Below the pieces are notes generated by a model, which worked only from the letters and a program-made list of their open reading frames with translations, had not been told where the DNA came from and made no database searches. This document shows, in pieces, positions 4,882 to 22,545 of a DNA stretch of 64,000 nt. Location of the stretch: NCBI RefSeq assembly GCF_988243305.1, contig NZ_OZ547136.1. One strand, given 5' to 3'. The position numbers were made by a program, and so were the translations under genes. The stretch's first letter is position 1. Every line of letters starts with the position of its first letter.

Positions 4882-5375
4882 TGCTGACCCCACAAACAGA
4901 TTTCACGCTCAATCTCACGACGAGTCATGAGACCTTTCCATTGCTTACCGCCAGCATATGTCCAGCGACGTAGCTGATCACATGCGCCTTTGATATCGCC
5001 CTGGTTTATTTTGCGAAGAAGCGTCGATGTTCTGAAATTGCCAGCGCCCACGTTGTAAACGAACGAGTAAAGAGCGCCGCGCGTTGTTTCCGGTATATCA
5101 ACTTTGATGTACGGGTTAATTTGTCTGGCGACCGTGGCAAGGTCTTTATTCAGGAGGGCTTTGCATTCTGCTTTGGTATACGTTTTACCGAGCATGATGT
5201 CTTTTCCTGTATGCCCGTGACATACAGTCCATACACCAACAATATCTTTGTATGGTATGTAGCTGACACCTTCCAGACCATCGTTACCACTTGGGCCAGT
5301 AATTAACACTGATGCTATAGCAATTGCTCCGCCACCAATAGCAGCAGCAACGGCTTTTCGTAATGATGGAGGCAT
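4878..5375 (-). CDS. Endolysin (T4-lysozyme-like with N-terminal signal-anchor-release segment, phage 21 / DLP12 RrrD type)
   Basis: 165-aa [62 protein letters not shown]...; hydrophobic Gly/Ala-rich N-terminus then lysozyme-like domain. Confidence 0.85.
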
Positions 5376-5590
5376 TATTCACCTCTCGCAGCCTTGCGCT
5401 TATCTTCTTTAATCTTGAAATAAAGGTTTGTCAGGTACGTCAGCAGGCCAAATACCAGGCTACCCAGCACACCTATTGCTGCCCACTGTGAGGGCGTGAC
5501 TTTATCGAGCAGCTGTAAAAACCAGTAGCCAGCACTGCCTGCGGAGGTGCCGTAGGCAATGCCTGTTGAAATTTTGTCCATGGATTTCAT
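5375..5590 (-). CDS. Class II holin (pinholin, S21 type) with dual-start motif
   Basis: 71-aa product [71 protein letters not shown]; two TM segments, Met1/Met4 dual start; track ORF extends upstream from a non-ATG start. Confidence 0.85.
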
Positions 5591-5692
5591 AGCCTCACCT
5601 CCGCACGGAACGGATGGCATAGTTATTATGTGTAGGCTTTCAGACACATCAATCAGAGCCTTAATTGATATATATGCTGGAGACGATGCAAT

Positions 5693-5716
5693 ATAAAAAG
5701 CTCGCCATAGCGAGCT
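5693..5716 (-). terminator. Rho-independent terminator candidate between the TolA-like cargo genes and the holin gene
   Basis: Inverted repeat agctcgc/gcgagct with 4-nt loop, followed on minus strand by a T-run. Confidence 0.45.
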
Positions 5717-5841
5717 AATAAAATGTATTTCTCTGATATTATGTTTATTTGTATTAGCTCAGACTTGACATCACAGGTTTCGTATATAGAACATCATCAA
5801 ATCTGTCAGTTTGCTATGAATGAGATATAGTAATTGAAGAG

Positions 5842-6237
5842 CTAACCTCGCATGTCAAAGCCAGATTTCTGAAAATCTCTGTAGACTTCCGGATTGTTGA
5901 AGGCCGGAAATTTGGCTTTATGAGCTGCGGACTTTATCGCTTCGCAATAGGCTTTATCACCGTTACTGGTAGATATTTTTAACGCCGTGCCATCCTGAGA
6001 GAATTCCATATGCAACCTGCATTTTTTCCCTTTCCAGTTATGCGGCTCATCAAGTTTGGCATTAATTGCAGCTCTGATTCCCCGCGCTTGCGCCCCCCAT
6101 TCATCCTGATCATCCCAGCGTCCTGAACTGCAACTACCTGTAGCAGTAGTTTTGTGGCAATCTGAAGGGTGTAAAGGTGTGCATCCCGCAACAAAACCGA
6201 CCCAAAAAGTCAACATAACGATTTTCTTTAATCCCAC
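5842..6237 (-). CDS. Lipoprotein with TolA C-terminal (domain III)-like fold, diverged copy
   Basis: 131-aa ORF with lipobox FVAGC; C-terminal ...KGKKCRLHMEFSQDGTALKISTSNGDKAYCEAIKSAAHKAKFPAFNNPEVYRDFQKSGFDMRG aligns with the TolA C-terminal domain; non-ATG start with strong SD (gaggag). Confidence 0.65.
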   Translation of the reverse strand: MGLKKIVMLTFWVGFVAGCTPLHPSDCHKTTATGSCSSGRWDDQDEWGAQARGIRAAINAKLDEPHNWKGKKCRLHMEFSQDGTALKISTSNGDKAYCEAIKSAAHKAKFPAFNNPEVYRDFQKSGFDMRG

Positions 6238-6387
6238 TTCTTGCTCCTCAATCCATTAAAATCTCAGCAATAGTAGTTGTTACGTCCGCCACTGGCTCAG
6301 AGCTGACTATCCGCTAAATTTAGCTCAGTGCCGTAGCTGTGTCAGAACAAACCTAAGCCGAAACCGTTTATTACAAAACAATAAATA

Positions 6388-6816
6388 TCAGGGTTTAAAA
6401 TCCAGCACCCCATTTTGAAATACTTTATATACTTCCGGCGAAGGGGGGGCAGGTATATCAGCATTCTTTATCGCATTCATCGCTTCACGACATAAATCGA
6501 GGTCTCCACTTTCTCTTTTAACCTCCAGTAGAAGGCCATTCGGGGCCATATGCATTCTCAGTGTACACTCTTTTCCTGAATACTTACTCGCATCCCCGAA
6601 CTGTTTTTCGATGGCGCTCTTGATTTGATGGGCATACAGACGGATATTCTCACTAACATCAGAAGTACGTTCAGATGAACTCACATACTGTGTCTCTATT
6701 GCTTTATCGGAGTAATATGATGTACGGTCATGATAATTTGTCGATACAGCATCAGTGCACCCGATAATAATCCCACTAATAATCAACGTAAGAATTGATG
6801 CGCTACGAAAACCCAT
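6388..6816 (-). CDS. Lipoprotein with TolA C-terminal (domain III)-like domain
   Basis: 142-aa ORF with lipobox IIGC; C-terminal YAHQIKSAIEKQFGDASKYSGKECTLRMHMAPNGLLLEVKRESGDLDLCREAMNAIKNADIPAPPSPEVYKVFQNGVLDFKP closely parallels E. coli TolA C-terminus (recalled ...YAGQIKSAIESKFYDASSYAGKTCTLRIKLAPDGMLLDIKPEGGDPALCQAALAAAKLAKIPKPPSQAVYEVFKNAPLDFKP); SD gtgaggaaaa. Confidence 0.75.
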   Translation of the reverse strand: MGFRSASILTLIISGIIIGCTDAVSTNYHDRTSYYSDKAIETQYVSSSERTSDVSENIRLYAHQIKSAIEKQFGDASKYSGKECTLRMHMAPNGLLLEVKRESGDLDLCREAMNAIKNADIPAPPSPEVYKVFQNGVLDFKP

Positions 6817-6845
6817 TTTTCCTCACATATGTCATATAGTAAAGG

Positions 6846-6875
6846 ATTATATATACCGTTGTTTTGGACGCTCAA
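6846..6875 (-). promoter_or_regulatory. Candidate sigma70 promoter for the TolA-like cargo genes
   Basis: Minus strand TTGAGC, ~17-18 bp spacer, TATAAT-like hexamer ~30 bp upstream of the 6816 start codon. Confidence 0.3.
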
Positions 6876-7349
6876 ACAGCGAATCAGATCAAATAAAACG
6901 CACATTTGTTAACATTTACACAAAGTCTGCGTGGGATATTCTGAAAGAATATCCATAATGTGGAGAGAATCTATTGAAGTGCATGGTGCCGGGTGCCTCC
7001 CGGTGAATTCAGTACCAGCACCTGAATCCGCGATTATCCCATATACCTACTCGCTGATTGCCCCTCCGCACAGGGGGATTCACCATGCCAGTTTCTTTTA
7101 ACAAACTCCCCGCAAACCAGAGAACAGTCAACCGCCTGAATTGTGAAGTATTTAAAAATTTCTCCCGCTAACTGATACCCGGCTAACAGTCTGGCGTTTT
7201 CTTTTTCAGCAACGGGAAAGCAACAACCACCACACCCGCCACCAGCACACCGTCAGCCAGCACTGACATTATCCGGCTGCTGCAATGCCATTCACAAAAA
7301 CAGTAAGCAATCACTTTTTACCGTAACAGGTGATAATCCAGATATGTAT

Positions 7350-7703
7350 CTACCCCAGATGAGTAATCCGAAGTTCATCCATACCACAGGTCCTGGCTAT
7401 TCTGTTGTACTCCTGAACAAGAGCAAATAATTCTGAATTAGCAACCATGAACTCATCGCAAACCCTCTGTATAGCATCACTATTCAGAAGAATAACGTCT
7501 CTTCCCGAAAGACGATCAGGAGTACAGAACAAAACTGTCAAACGGCTGAAGGCCTTTGCTCGTGCTGCATTGACTATATCAATACGCTGCCTAAGGATGA
7601 AACACCCCGACGCCTCATCAATATTCACTCTACCCACACCATATGAATGATAAATATTTAATGCTGAAAAAACCATTAGACCGTATAACAAACACTCAAT
7701 CAA
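7350..7703 (-). CDS. Hypothetical protein in late-operon cargo locus; start uncertain (track start is non-ATG; ATG at ~7676)
   Basis: 117-aa ORF, no recognisable family, no clear SD. Confidence 0.3.
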   Translation of the reverse strand: MIECLLYGLMVFSALNIYHSYGVGRVNIDEASGCFILRQRIDIVNAARAKAFSRLTVLFCTPDRLSGRDVILLNSDAIQRVCDEFMVANSELFALVQEYNRIARTCGMDELRITHLG

Positions 7704-7813
7704 TACTTAACAGAACTTTTATTTTTGACAAACATATAATATTTTCAACAATATCCTGAGCCAGGTATATTCCAGTATAAGGCTCTGCCGGAAGGAATCT
7801 GGAAGAATGAATA

Positions 7814-7890
7814 TGGCGCGCTGTACTGGATTCGAACCAGTAACCGATTGCTTAGAAGGCAATTGCTCTGTCCGGCTGAGCTAACAACGC
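7814..7890 (-). tRNA. tRNA-Arg (anticodon UCU)
   Basis: Reverse complement gcgttgttagctcagccggacagagcaattgccttctaagcaatcggttactggttcgaatccagtacagcgcgcca folds as cloverleaf: 7-bp acceptor stem, anticodon loop cttctaa, T-loop ttcgaat, CCA end. Confidence 0.9.
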
Positions 7891-7994
7891 TGAATACCGA
7901 TAATGGACCGCTATCGGGGACCCGCCCCCCCCCGCACCAACAACCCTGTTATCGTGTCGTCTGCTCTTCCTGATAAGCTCATGGCGGTTTGTGA

Positions 7995-8070
7995 TGGTGG
8001 CCCTTGCTGGATTTGAACCAGCGACCTGGCGATTATGAGTCGCTCGCTCTCACCACTGAGCTAAAGGGCC
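7995..8070 (-). tRNA. tRNA with CAU anticodon (Ile2/lysidine type or Met), resembling phage ileZ
   Basis: Reverse complement ggccctttagctcagtggtgagagcgagcgactcataatcgccaggtcgctggttcaaatccagcaagggccacca; perfect 7-bp acceptor stem, anticodon loop ctcataa, CCA end. Confidence 0.9.
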
Positions 8071-8105
8071 GGGAGCAGAATAATAACGGTCCGTAATTAA
8101 TTCCG

Positions 8106-8133
8106 CAATAAAAAACCCGCTCGGCGGCGGGTT
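8106..8133 (-). terminator. tR'-like rho-independent terminator downstream of the late promoter
   Basis: Hairpin aacccgc/gcgggtt with 6-nt loop, followed on minus strand by TTTTTATT. Confidence 0.6.
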
Positions 8134-8180
8134 GTAGAAACTCTTCTAACGTCAGGCATAAAAAGCCCATCGTTATGATG

Positions 8181-8208
8181 AATTTACCACAGATTTCGGA
8201 AAAATCAA
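8181..8208 (-). promoter_or_regulatory. pR'-like late promoter candidate between Q and the terminator
   Basis: Minus strand TTGATT, 16 bp, TG-n-TAAATT (extended -10) in the 80-bp gap between Q stop and terminator hairpin; predicts a short ~60-nt leader RNA like lambda 6S. Confidence 0.4.
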
Positions 8209-8213
8209 CCTTG

Positions 8214-9035
8214 TTACCTAGTTACCTTTTTTAACTGCCGCTCAGCCCATCCTTCTTCAATATCAAACCGGGTCACCAGCGCATCATAGAATTTCTTAAC
8301 TGTTTTTTCCCATGACGCGCGTGTTATCTGGTTTGTCACCTCGCATATAGCATTAAATGCCTCCGTTGATGGTAGTCTTTCATAGCCACGACCACCACAA
8401 CGCTGGCAGTCTCTGATAACAGGCATACCACGTTTTACCGACTCTTCACGGTGAATGGCGACACCACGCCCACGGCAATCCTTACAGGCGGTGGAAACCT
8501 CACCCTTTCCGCCACACTCCGGACAGGCAACTTTTACCACCTCCCTGACTTTTTTCCATTCTTCCCAGTAAGACGGATACACACCTTTCGTACACTTTGC
8601 CCATACCGGCGGCTTACCATCCGGATACTGGACCTTGTTTGTAAAAACTACGCTTTCAATAAATTTTTCCCCATAGCAACAAGGGCACTGCTTTTTACTC
8701 GCTGCGCTGCGGGCATAATCCTCAAAAGCGTACGAAGCCATAATGCGCATCACTACCGGTTTTATTTCTGCCGGAAGTTTTCTCAACGCCGCCACACGAT
8801 CGCACCGACTGAGTGCATAATCTGCCAGTAATTCTGTTGCCCGCGCCCTGTCATTCATACTGATGCCCATTTTCCCCAGGAACGCAGAAAACCCCATCTC
8901 AGCCCGATTCTGTGTCATGCCCTGCGCGGCCATCACATCAGTGATACTCAGCGCATCTTTTGACGTTGAGGCCGATGCATCGGTCAGGCAAGGGGATTTT
9001 GGGGAGTAGTATTTCGGTAAATCTTCCAGTTTCAT
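8214..9035 (-). CDS. Late-gene antiterminator Q (Cys-rich, Qin QuuQ / phage 82 type)
   Basis: 273-aa ORF MKLEDLPKYYSPKSPCLTDAS...CPCCYGE...CPECGGKGEVSTACKDCRGRG...; position immediately upstream of pR'/tR' and lysis genes. Confidence 0.7.
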   Translation of the reverse strand: MKLEDLPKYYSPKSPCLTDASASTSKDALSITDVMAAQGMTQNRAEMGFSAFLGKMGISMNDRARATELLADYALSRCDRVAALRKLPAEIKPVVMRIMASYAFEDYARSAASKKQCPCCYGEKFIESVVFTNKVQYPDGKPPVWAKCTKGVYPSYWEEWKKVREVVKVACPECGGKGEVSTACKDCRGRGVAIHREESVKRGMPVIRDCQRCGGRGYERLPSTEAFNAICEVTNQITRASWEKTVKKFYDALVTRFDIEEGWAERQLKKVTR

Positions 9036-9409
9036 TTTTTGACCTGCTCTTCATGCATTATGGGGTAAATCTTCACCCCCAGACGTCCACCAGATACTGG
9101 CTGACCACGAACGATATTGATTTCATCAAACTGCTCATCGTCCATTAACACTCCCGCATGCGTCAGCGCATCCAGCGGTGCTTTCAGGATATTGTCCAGG
9201 TCGCGACGACGCTTATCCGGTGGCTCTGCAATCACCTTTATCGCCAGCCTTCCGGACAGGCTTAATTTCAGCCGCTGCTGGCGAACAATAAGCGCCACAG
9301 CCCGGCGATAACGCTTTCCCTCCTCCGAGATAAAATATGTGCTGCCACGGCGTCGCCAGTAAGTGTTCACCGTCGGCGGGTAAGGTAAAACCAAATCTAT
9401 GAGCATCAC
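9032..9409 (-). CDS. rusA: Holliday junction resolvase RusA
   Basis: 125-aa ORF ...LPYPPTVNTYWRRRG...DKRRRDLDNILKAPLDALTHAGVLMDDEQ... matches RusA motifs. Confidence 0.8.
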   Translation of the reverse strand: MMLIDLVLPYPPTVNTYWRRRGSTYFISEEGKRYRRAVALIVRQQRLKLSLSGRLAIKVIAEPPDKRRRDLDNILKAPLDALTHAGVLMDDEQFDEINIVRGQPVSGGRLGVKIYPIMHEEQVKK

Positions 9410-10915: not shown

Positions 10916-11071
10916 TTACTCCTCAGGTTCGTAAACTGTGAAGACAGCGACCTCCGTCTGGCCGGTTCGGATTCGTACCTCGCAGAGGTCTTTCCTCGTT
11001 ACCAGTGCCGTCACTATGACGGTTAAACAGATGACGATCAGGGCGATTAACATCGCCTTTTGCTGCTTCAT
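10916..11071 (-). CDS. hok: Hok/Gef family type I toxin (HokD/RelF-like)
   Basis: 51-aa product MKQQKAMLIALIVICLTVIVTALVTRKDLCEVRIRTGQTEVAVFTVYEPEE; single TM helix and conserved Cys; track ORF carries an in-frame 19-codon upstream extension. Confidence 0.9.
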   Translation of the reverse strand: MKQQKAMLIALIVICLTVIVTALVTRKDLCEVRIRTGQTEVAVFTVYEPEE

Positions 11072-11791
11072 AGCCTGCTTCTCCTTGCCTTTCGGCACGT
11101 AAGAGGCTAACCTAGATTTGCCGTTCATAGATTGAGCCTCAGATTAATGTTAAGCGTCTTGCAGGACGCGTAATGTTAACTGGGGCTTTTCTCTATCTGC
11201 CTTTGGTGTTCATGCCTGAGGCAGATAGCCTCAAGCACCCGCAGCAATTCTACTTAACTCCCGTCACCTCGCCAATATAAAATCAATCAGAAAGGCGATC
11301 CATAAGAACAACAGCAAGACAATAAATTGCCATTACAGCCGCAATAGCTAGCGCACATTTGAGAACCAGCACGACAACCTCCTGTATTGGACGTACACCA
11401 GTTCTGATAAATATGAGGCTGTCTCATCATTGATTCAATATAACTATTGGGTATAGTTTCTGTGATTTTGTTCTGTAGAAATGGAACACAACAACCAGTC
11501 ACCACCAGCACTTCTTTAAATACGCCAAGTCCGACGCAAGCTAACCTTCTAGTCCGCTTTGAGCGAGGAGCGGACCAAACCCGGCCAACTGACTCTTAAA
11601 GGGGCCGCAGGAATTTTTCGTCTGAACTTTCGAAGCTCCTCTCCCTGAAGACAGAAAACTTCTGTGTGCTGTGGGAATATTGAATCTTTGCATTAGATAT
11701 AAATAATTTTATCCCGCCTGAAGTTTACATTATTTTATTTATCTGTTTTTCTAAATCAGACTGCACTCCTTACTTAAATCAGGAGCCAGTC

Positions 11792-22006: not shown

Positions 22007-22545
22007 TAAAGGAGTTCTCCACGGGTGAGGTGGAGTGCGTGTGCCGGACACGGGTGAGCATCCGGCACTGACAGTTTACTGAAAGGATATTTCCCTGAAA
22101 AGTCAGACCATAACGCGAAAGCGCACGGCGAGGTAGCTGGTTCATAGATAGCCTGTCGTTAAATTTTCGTCGACCGTGCGCTTCCGGTTGTGGCAATCCG
22201 CGAAATGGCGCGGCGGTAAGTATGGCGGGGTTATTCCTTCCCCCGTTGAGGACACCGGGTTGTCAGGTTGACCATACGCTTAAGTGACAACCCCGCTGCA
22301 ACGCCCTCTGTTATCAATTTTCTGGTGACGTTTGGCGGTATCAGTTTTACTCCGTGACTGCTCTGCCGCCCTTTTTAAAGTGAATTTTGTGATGTGGTGA
22401 ATGCGGCTGAGCGCACGCGGAACAGTTAAAACCAAAAACAGTGTTATGGGTGGATTCTCTGTATCCGGCGTTAATTGTTAACTGGTTAACGTCACCTGGA
22501 GGCACCAGGCACCGCATCACAAAATTCATTGTTGAGGACGCGATA

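Follow-up and report, generated by a model that had tools for sequence, protein, structure and literature searches.

The cargo interval between the tRNA genes and the TolA-like genes of a lambdoid prophage was analyzed in a stretch of 64,000 nucleotides (nt) from contig NZ_OZ547136.1 (assembly GCF_988243305.1), which is called the window below and whose coordinates are used throughout. The interval was very probably ordinary, partly decayed Escherichia coli prophage cargo, made up of an intact gene of 92 codons (ORF92; ORF, open reading frame), a stub of tciA, a pseudogene fragment of tciB and a copy of the small RNA (sRNA) element STnc100 lacking its terminator. All families found in the interval are already catalogued. 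Judged from the alignments, the 28-residue hydrophobic peptide of this interval, which a sequence-only reading of the window had put forward as a possible type I toxin, is the second transmembrane segment (TM2) and the basic tail of a decayed two-TM DUF3927/TciB gene, that is, a pseudogene fragment.

The peptide MSVLADGVLVAGVVVVAFPLLKKKTPDC is encoded on the minus strand at 7269..7183 from an ATG, and its ORF is nested in one of 43 codons that opens at GTG 7314 (7183..7314, minus strand) and is called "DUF3927 family protein" (WP_000562553.1) by PGAP. The peptide had been placed at about 7183-7269 from the letters of the sequence; it was indeed present there and was not a chance ORF, as the 43-residue product matched Pfam PF13064 (DUF3927) with an E value of 1.7e-27 and 95.6 bits (cut-off 25). 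The same product matched phrog_1470 ("TciB-like") with an E value of 7.8e-13. Intact DUF3927 proteins have 50-57 residues and consist of a basic N-terminus, TM1, a VDF..SR(I/L)MSVLADG loop, TM2 and a basic tail. Residues 12-43 of the window product corresponded to the loop, TM2 and basic tail of TciB and residues 1-11 were unrelated to the family, so that the full two-TM architecture was not present, TM1 and the VDF motif being missing. In the protein database, DUF3927 forms of 28, 43 and 54-57 residues occur, and the clusters of the 28-residue form occur on 500 to >1000 contigs. In-frame tandem duplications were also observed in the TM segments of the DUF3927 proteins P0079, P0117, P0028 and P0121 (VVM repeats; a GVLVAG repeat), which marked the coding sequence as slippage-prone.

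The course of the decay was read from fine and pairwise alignments. The tciB/DUF3927 pseudogene occupies 7183..7327 (minus strand) with its 3' two-thirds intact, and it is preceded by a 19-nt stub of the 3' end of terB/tciA (7324..7342, minus strand), which aligned to the last TerB codons (..LENHL*) in loci L013 and L010 and in tciA of phage JLK-2012. The ancestral GTG start of tciB, which overlaps terB, is now GTT (7327..7325). Several small deletions in the TM1-coding part have removed a net 20 nt compared with the 54-codon form, because of which the ancestral frame stops after 11 codons, and the 3' two-thirds lie in the frame that reopens at GTG 7314. In 10 of the 10 lambdoid loci fetched for two DUF3927 proteins, the DUF3927 start overlaps the stop of a 143-residue TerB-domain gene by 4 nt; this coupling to TerB was seen in all intact loci examined, whereas it was absent from the window. 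Homology of the window with TerB-DUF3927 loci covered 8110..7801 and 7282..6980, the latter block at 88% identity, and the stretch between them was not covered. The TerB hidden Markov model (PF05099) gave no match in the six-frame ORFs of the window, nor in 80 copies of the window's ORF92 clade from viral contigs, on which the counts of TerB, terminators and homology breaks were based (polymorphism was scored on 79-80 near-identical copies). With TerB absent from 80 of 80 copies and the tciB remnant kept in 79 of 80, the decayed form spreads as a unit. In the proposed course of events, the tciB start would have mutated from GTG to GTT and the TM1 part would have been shortened by the net 20 nt, leaving the loop, TM2 and the Lys-rich tail in an open frame. 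No convincing Shine-Dalgarno (SD) sequence had been seen before the 28-residue ORF, and this was correct, for none precedes either ATG 7269 or GTG 7314; the fragment, with neither an SD sequence nor a coupled upstream ORF, would probably not be translated to a useful level.

What the interval looked like before the decay was indicated by its relatives. Homologues of ORF92 stand directly upstream of an intact TerB-DUF3927 pair in L018/19 (64% identity), in L020-23 and L112/113 (37% identity), and in 10 of the 19 viral loci of the P0130 clade. Because ORF92 homologues adjoin the intact pair in these relatives, the window was considered, with good though not complete confidence, to descend by deletion from an ORF92-tciA-tciB arrangement. 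ORF92 is followed by a terminator-like hairpin in L018, L120, L129 and L112, the intact loci that were inspected, and in L018, L120 and L129 the hairpin reads AGCTCGC-TACG-GCGAGCT followed by T7. The order in the relatives would be ORF92, its own intrinsic terminator, terB (tciA) and the overlapping tciB, from which the window would have lost the terminator and all of terB except the last 19 nt. A simple cassette replacement was also considered and was dropped in view of the aligned terB stub, the degraded TM1 and the intact three-gene arrangement in relatives; deletion and decay within ORF92-tciA-tciB, which took the place of that model, is the probable course.

The pair of genes itself is known from other phages. 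TerB and DUF3927 are annotated as tciA and tciB in phages JLK-2012 and P1, in both next to phage tRNA genes, and the tci name reflects a resemblance to loci for tellurite, colicin and cell division. The window ORF is homologous to TciB of the P1 tciA-tciB(-tciC) module, with the SRIMSVLADG loop motif, TM2 and the basic tail present, and, like the genes of P1 and JLK-2012, the remnant has phage tRNA genes upstream of it. It differs from the P1 module in that tciA is gone but for 19 nt and in that tciB is frameshifted and has neither start codon nor TM1. Literature searches on DUF3927 and tciA/tciB returned nothing functional for the intact module. In phage P1 (L025, 1142..3012) and JLK-2012 (L026, 2599..3593) the tRNA genes, tciA and tciB are linked, and this linkage in both P1 and lambdoid phages indicates that the block moves between very different phage types.

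The longer ORF of the interval was then found to hold a gene. An ORF of 117 residues, noted earlier at 7350-7703, is present on the minus strand (7703..7350, TTG start) and is more than a chance occurrence, since it matched phrog_2873 with an E value of 6.1e-70. It had been described as having no recognizable family. This held for Pfam and NCBIfam, in which no match to the 117-residue ORF was found, but not for PHROG; the homology search proposed for it thus ended in a catalogued phage family of proteins whose function is not assigned. A word-indexed search yielded 23 relatives, which with few exceptions came from E. coli or Shigella, and 21 were found when 1.84 billion representatives were scanned in full with HMMER, including proteins of 91-95 residues at 30-39% identity. 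When the 93-codon core was compared with a homologue of clade 2 (67% nucleotide identity), no indels were found, third-position changes were twofold, and dN/dS was 0.30/1.13 = 0.27, compared with about 1 for the other frames without mirror effect. By this comparison ORF92 is a real gene under purifying selection.

The coding unit is most likely one of 92 residues, 7628..7350, and not of 117, as far as the start can be read from comparison. The start was assigned to GTG 7628 because all distant homologues (91-95 residues) begin at this position (MNID/MINP), the frame is closed 5 codons upstream of the GTG in L110, and an AGGAG lies 4 nt upstream of it in L018. The intact gene therefore was placed at 7350..7628 (minus strand) on the evidence of phrog_2873, dN/dS and the homologue starts. 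The upstream in-frame extension (7629..7703, minus strand; TTG 7703, ATG 7676) is missing in all distant homologues, and between clades it was 46% identical with indels, compared with 61% for the core; it is probably 5' untranslated or promoter region rather than coding. ORF92 matched the whole 108-position profile of PHROG 2873 (E value 6e-70) and differs from it in that the profile has a 16-residue N-terminal extension which the distant homologues do not have, the conserved unit being 92 residues. The AF2 model (pLDDT 88) predicted a soluble protein of helix, short beta hairpin and helix, the two helices forming an antiparallel hairpin. PADLOC returned nothing for ORF92, a PDB sequence search with the family profile gave a best E value of 0.057 (GapR/UPF0335), which was not significant, and a Pfam scan over all family members gave scattered single matches only. 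ORF92 would be the only functional protein-coding unit of the interval, possibly a small cytoplasmic binding or regulatory protein, and might be expressed from its own weak promoter, for which TTGATT-17-TCTAAT upstream is a candidate, together with Q-antiterminated late transcription.

Some features of its neighbourhood were recorded as well. ORF92 is unannotated in the RefSeq record NZ_CP030331 and in phage mEp460_ev081, both of which carry small coding sequences (CDSs) without family support on the opposite strand (6958..7098, plus; 7643..7759, plus) that overlap the sRNA or the region upstream of ORF92. In clade 2 (L004, 2762..3990; L005-L007), an IS3-family element is inserted directly upstream of ORF92 and has produced a chimeric N-terminus (P0017). 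In both clade 2 and the P0130 clade, the gene before ORF92 is commonly of the AraC family (HTH_18).

Downstream of the tciB remnant, an sRNA element of the STnc100/PasD family (Rfam RF02076) was detected at 6927..7117 on the minus strand, with its core at 7117..6980 and its 3' part at 6979..6927. It matched model positions 1-206 of 206 at 114 bits (gathering threshold 47). The spacer of 65 nt between the tciB stop and the element (7118..7182, minus strand) lies within the 7282..6980 block, is conserved with both neighbours and had 2 variant sites in 74 copies. The roughly 390-bp stretch described earlier as free of long ORFs was accordingly not an empty region, as it carries STnc100 at 7117..6927 (minus strand); what had been said of a 28-residue ORF on its minus strand stood. 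On the opposite strand, PGAP places a pseudo-CDS, "hypothetical protein, incomplete", at 6958..7098 (plus strand; L001, 4142..4282), antisense to the element. Its 56-residue ORF had no family match in Pfam, PHROG or NCBIfam and overlaps the Rfam match, and the call is probably spurious.

The 3' part of the element differed from that of most copies. The core (7117..6980) was common to other loci. Homology to the window ended at 6980 in 69 of the 80 viral-contig copies, and 67 of the 80 continued after this position with a canonical AGCCCCUCUCCGGAGGGGC hairpin and a U-rich tail, L027 reaching 131.7 bits. The window type was found in 6 of the 80, in which an AU-rich hairpin without a U tract is followed by a promoter-like site and the start of the TolA-like gene. 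In the window, GGAUAUUCUUUCAGAAUAUCC and then CACGCAG stand where the canonical GC hairpin and U tract would be, and the minus strand showed no terminator-like site at the 3' end of the sRNA. By its sequence, the window copy has the core but not the canonical terminator. The terminator would have been swapped at 6980 for a junction with the TolA-C lipoprotein cassette; transcripts would then probably extend past the core, which has no terminator, toward the TolA-like genes, and the copy would probably be impaired as an independent Hfq-binding sRNA.

In published work, STnc100 is a multicopy prophage sRNA, of which 11 transcribed copies were reported in strain EDL933, one of them confirmed by northern blot (PMC5331693), and a copy lies 75 nt downstream of stx2 (PMC12370729). 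PasD of enteropathogenic E. coli is Hfq-dependent and related to STnc100 (PMC8550237; bioRxiv 10.64898/2026.05.13.724894). The window copy resembles STnc100 and PasD1-PasD2 in its full-length model match at 114 bits and in its location between Q and the lysis genes 3' of a cargo gene, as with STnc100 by stx2 and PasD near Q (PMC12370729; bioRxiv 10.64898/2026.05.13.724894). It differs from them in that, from 6979 on, the AU-rich hairpin without a U tract stands in place of the canonical GC-rich terminator hairpin with its U tract, and in this it resembles the terminator-less "PasA-3" variant, which is maybe a pseudogene according to the preprint (bioRxiv 10.64898/2026.05.13.724894). In the fetched loci, STnc100 copies follow unrelated cargo, namely a TolA-like gene, ORF92 or tciAB. 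The sequence comparison suggests that the STnc100 element acts as a recombination seam between cassettes. STnc100 was observed at the 3' end of unrelated cassettes in L004, L010, L013, L026, L027 and L110, and homology between loci broke repeatedly between the core and the terminator.

Several observations weighed against an interval of plain decay around one working gene. The frame of the tciB remnant was open in 79 of 79 copies, with no frameshifts or stops, and its density of polymorphic sites was about three times that of the flanks (copies in L027-L106). Codons 16-43, which form the 28-residue part, had 7 synonymous and 6 non-synonymous variants; over the whole 43-codon ORF, 9 of the 16 variant sites were synonymous and 7 non-synonymous (binomial p 0.005), two of the synonymous sites lying in the non-homologous N-terminal codons and one of these destroying the GTG start; GTG 7314 was GTT in 3 of 79 viral copies. 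This synonymous excess could mean that the remnant is still under selection. As for ORF92, the structure searches returned generic coiled-coil hairpin matches only, which makes its proposed role a guess, and its polymorphism within the clade was near neutral (4 synonymous and 7 non-synonymous sites in the core; 5 and 10 for the whole gene in 79-80 near-identical copies). The sRNA of the window still fitted the full Rfam model, including the substitute 3' hairpin, and may still be made as a discrete RNA. The promoters, transcript ends and translation starts of the locus were all predicted from the sequence.

The first of these observations could be carried further. The remnant might have been neo-functionalised, in which case the 28 residues from ATG 7269 would still be translated and selection would maintain them as a small membrane peptide that might, for instance, modulate holin timing or membrane stress. 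The frame open in every copy and the synonymous count in codons 16-43, for which a synonymous fraction of 0.24 was expected, fit this explanation, but the counts are small and the segment is a GT-rich, slippage-prone repeat, with in-frame duplications in P0028 and P0121. The variant bases were mostly absent from the six intact paralogues examined, which also fits; many paralogues exist in co-resident prophages, however, and gene conversion from selected intact copies could mimic the signal. The truncated form is very widespread, as its contig numbers show, but hitch-hiking with a successful prophage module would account for this just as well. No SD sequence is present, and 3 copies no longer have the upstream GTG. 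The synonymous excess could come from gene conversion from intact paralogues in co-resident prophages, from a GT-rich hot spot or from real selection on a translated peptide, and of these a selected peptide was considered unlikely.

An alternative of similar standing concerned the upstream gene. ORF92, TerB and TciB might form a functional three-gene module, such as a regulator or adaptor of a membrane-stress or exclusion system, of which the window keeps the orphaned first gene. The position of ORF92 directly upstream of TerB-DUF3927 in three divergent clades (those at 64% and 37% identity and the window's own remnant) would agree with such a module, but an intrinsic terminator stands between ORF92 and TerB in those loci. 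Co-transcription of ORF92 with tciAB was rejected on account of this terminator in the intact loci. Moreover, P1 and 10 of the 10 lambdoid loci examined have tciAB but no ORF92. Conversely, ORF92 stands alone, with no tciAB, in clade 2, in 9 of the 19 loci of the P0130 clade, and in other settings beside fimbrial or Mu-like tail genes. The association of ORF92 with tciAB is facultative, and a three-gene module was judged improbable. The possibility that the 28-residue half of TciB is translated and selected, and has spread through >1000 E. coli/Shigella genomes, and/or that ORF92 is the third partner of a TerB-TciB module, was likewise given a low probability. If true, either reading would be the first functional handle on the tciAB/DUF3927 cargo at the stx position of non-Stx lambdoid prophages.

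The type I toxin fared worse. The architecture on which it was proposed, a single-TM peptide with a Lys cluster, was borne out insofar as the peptide is small, has one hydrophobic helix and ends in a KKK tail; the toxin locus was not, because the peptide is what is left of a two-TM protein and no antitoxin RNA family was matched beside it. In this explanation the peptide would depolarise the membrane when made and would be held down by an RNA antitoxin, and the small hydrophobic form with a basic cluster, the presence of a real type I system (hok/sok) in the same prophage and an sRNA gene 66 nt away would suit it. That sRNA, however, is on the same strand as the peptide ORF and downstream of it, not antisense, and belongs to a family of trans-acting Hfq sRNAs (PMC8550237). 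At the locus, Rfam gave no match to an antitoxin RNA family (E<=1), while sok was detected elsewhere in the window, and PADLOC had no match for the DUF3927 family. Intact homologues are translationally coupled to TerB and are not paired with an antisense RNA. As the 3' part of a frameshifted gene, with no SD sequence and a variable upstream GTG, the ORF was not an independent gene with its own start signals, and it had no dedicated promoter or structured 5' untranslated region. Compared with known type I systems (hok/sok, ldr/rdl, ibs/sib, tisB/istR), the window peptide shares the small hydrophobic single-TM form, the charged tail and the prophage setting, and differs in that neither an antisense or overlapping RNA nor a toxin-type mRNA leader was found with it, in its lack of start signals of its own, and in being a fragment of a larger protein. 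The toxin reading was not supported, its probability being very small, and the locus is very unlikely to be a type I toxin locus. The genuine hok/sok of the same prophage was located at 10916..11240 (minus strand), with sok at 11066..11240 (Rfam, 111.7 bits) and the hokD ORF within 10916..11128; the identical E. coli locus carries a PGAP call for hokD.

That the 117-residue ORF is a non-coding accident was the least probable explanation and hardly credible, for although the ORF is unannotated in RefSeq (PGAP) and in LR597641, has an atypical start and a weak SD sequence and matches neither Pfam nor NCBIfam, the low dN/dS, the doubled third-position changes and the lack of indels, the same-length HMMER homologues down to 30% identity, the confident AF2 model and the PHROG 2873 match all stand against it.

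The reading as decayed cargo was in keeping with the setting. The late region of the lambdoid prophage lies on the minus strand in the order Q, tRNA genes, ORF92, DUF3927, two TolA genes, holin, lysozyme, Rz and bor/iss. The Q antiterminator lies at 9035..8214 (minus strand), and it is followed by tRNA(CAT), which is tRNA-Ile according to PGAP (8070..7995, minus strand), and downstream of this by tRNA-Arg(TCT) (7814..7890, minus strand; ARAGORN, Rfam and PGAP), the left boundary of the cargo slot. Two genes with TolA-C domains follow at 6816..6388 and 6237..5842 (minus strand; Pfam PF06519, E values 3.6e-23 and 1.3e-14). The region 9100..5374 was 99% identical to phage mEp460_ev081. The 997 nt of 6817..7813 had matches in 3240 of 5426 complete E. 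coli genomes, with at least 80% coverage in 1181 of the 5426, and the top matches listed were 100% identical. The interval had been described as unassigned cargo between the tRNAs and the TolA-like genes, and this position was confirmed by the Q/tRNA/TolA order and the mEp460 match. It is likely to be a moron slot 3' of Q and two tRNA genes in an mEp460-like lambdoid prophage, a patchwork that arose from deletion and cassette exchange.

Further features of the surroundings were noted. The TolA-like genes (6388..6816 and 5842..6237, minus strand) have lipobox-like N-termini (..IIIGC.. and ..VAGC..), and such a pair as prophage cargo could hinder the entry of colicins or phages that depend on Tol. 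In the stretch that separates Q from the tRNA genes (8107..8213, minus strand), a strong terminator-like hairpin at 8133..8114 (AACCCGC..GCGGGTT and a T run) is probably tR' of the late operon, and a weak Trp_leader-like Rfam match covers the same stretch. A DicF sRNA was found at 22320..22371 (plus strand; Rfam, 76.7 bits).

The locus is mainly a matter of housekeeping, and the current view of prophage biology is unchanged by it. For annotation, a conserved and selected gene of 92 codons is left uncalled by PGAP, and the 28- and 43-residue "DUF3927 family protein" calls on hundreds to thousands of E. coli/Shigella contigs correspond to the 3' portion of a tciB gene broken by a frameshift. For the sRNA family, STnc100/PasD-type elements mark the 3' edges of interchangeable cassettes (stx2, tciAB, TolA-like, ORF92), and recombination can cut the core from the terminator and leave terminator-less copies, which surveys by sequence or covariance-model matches would count as functional.

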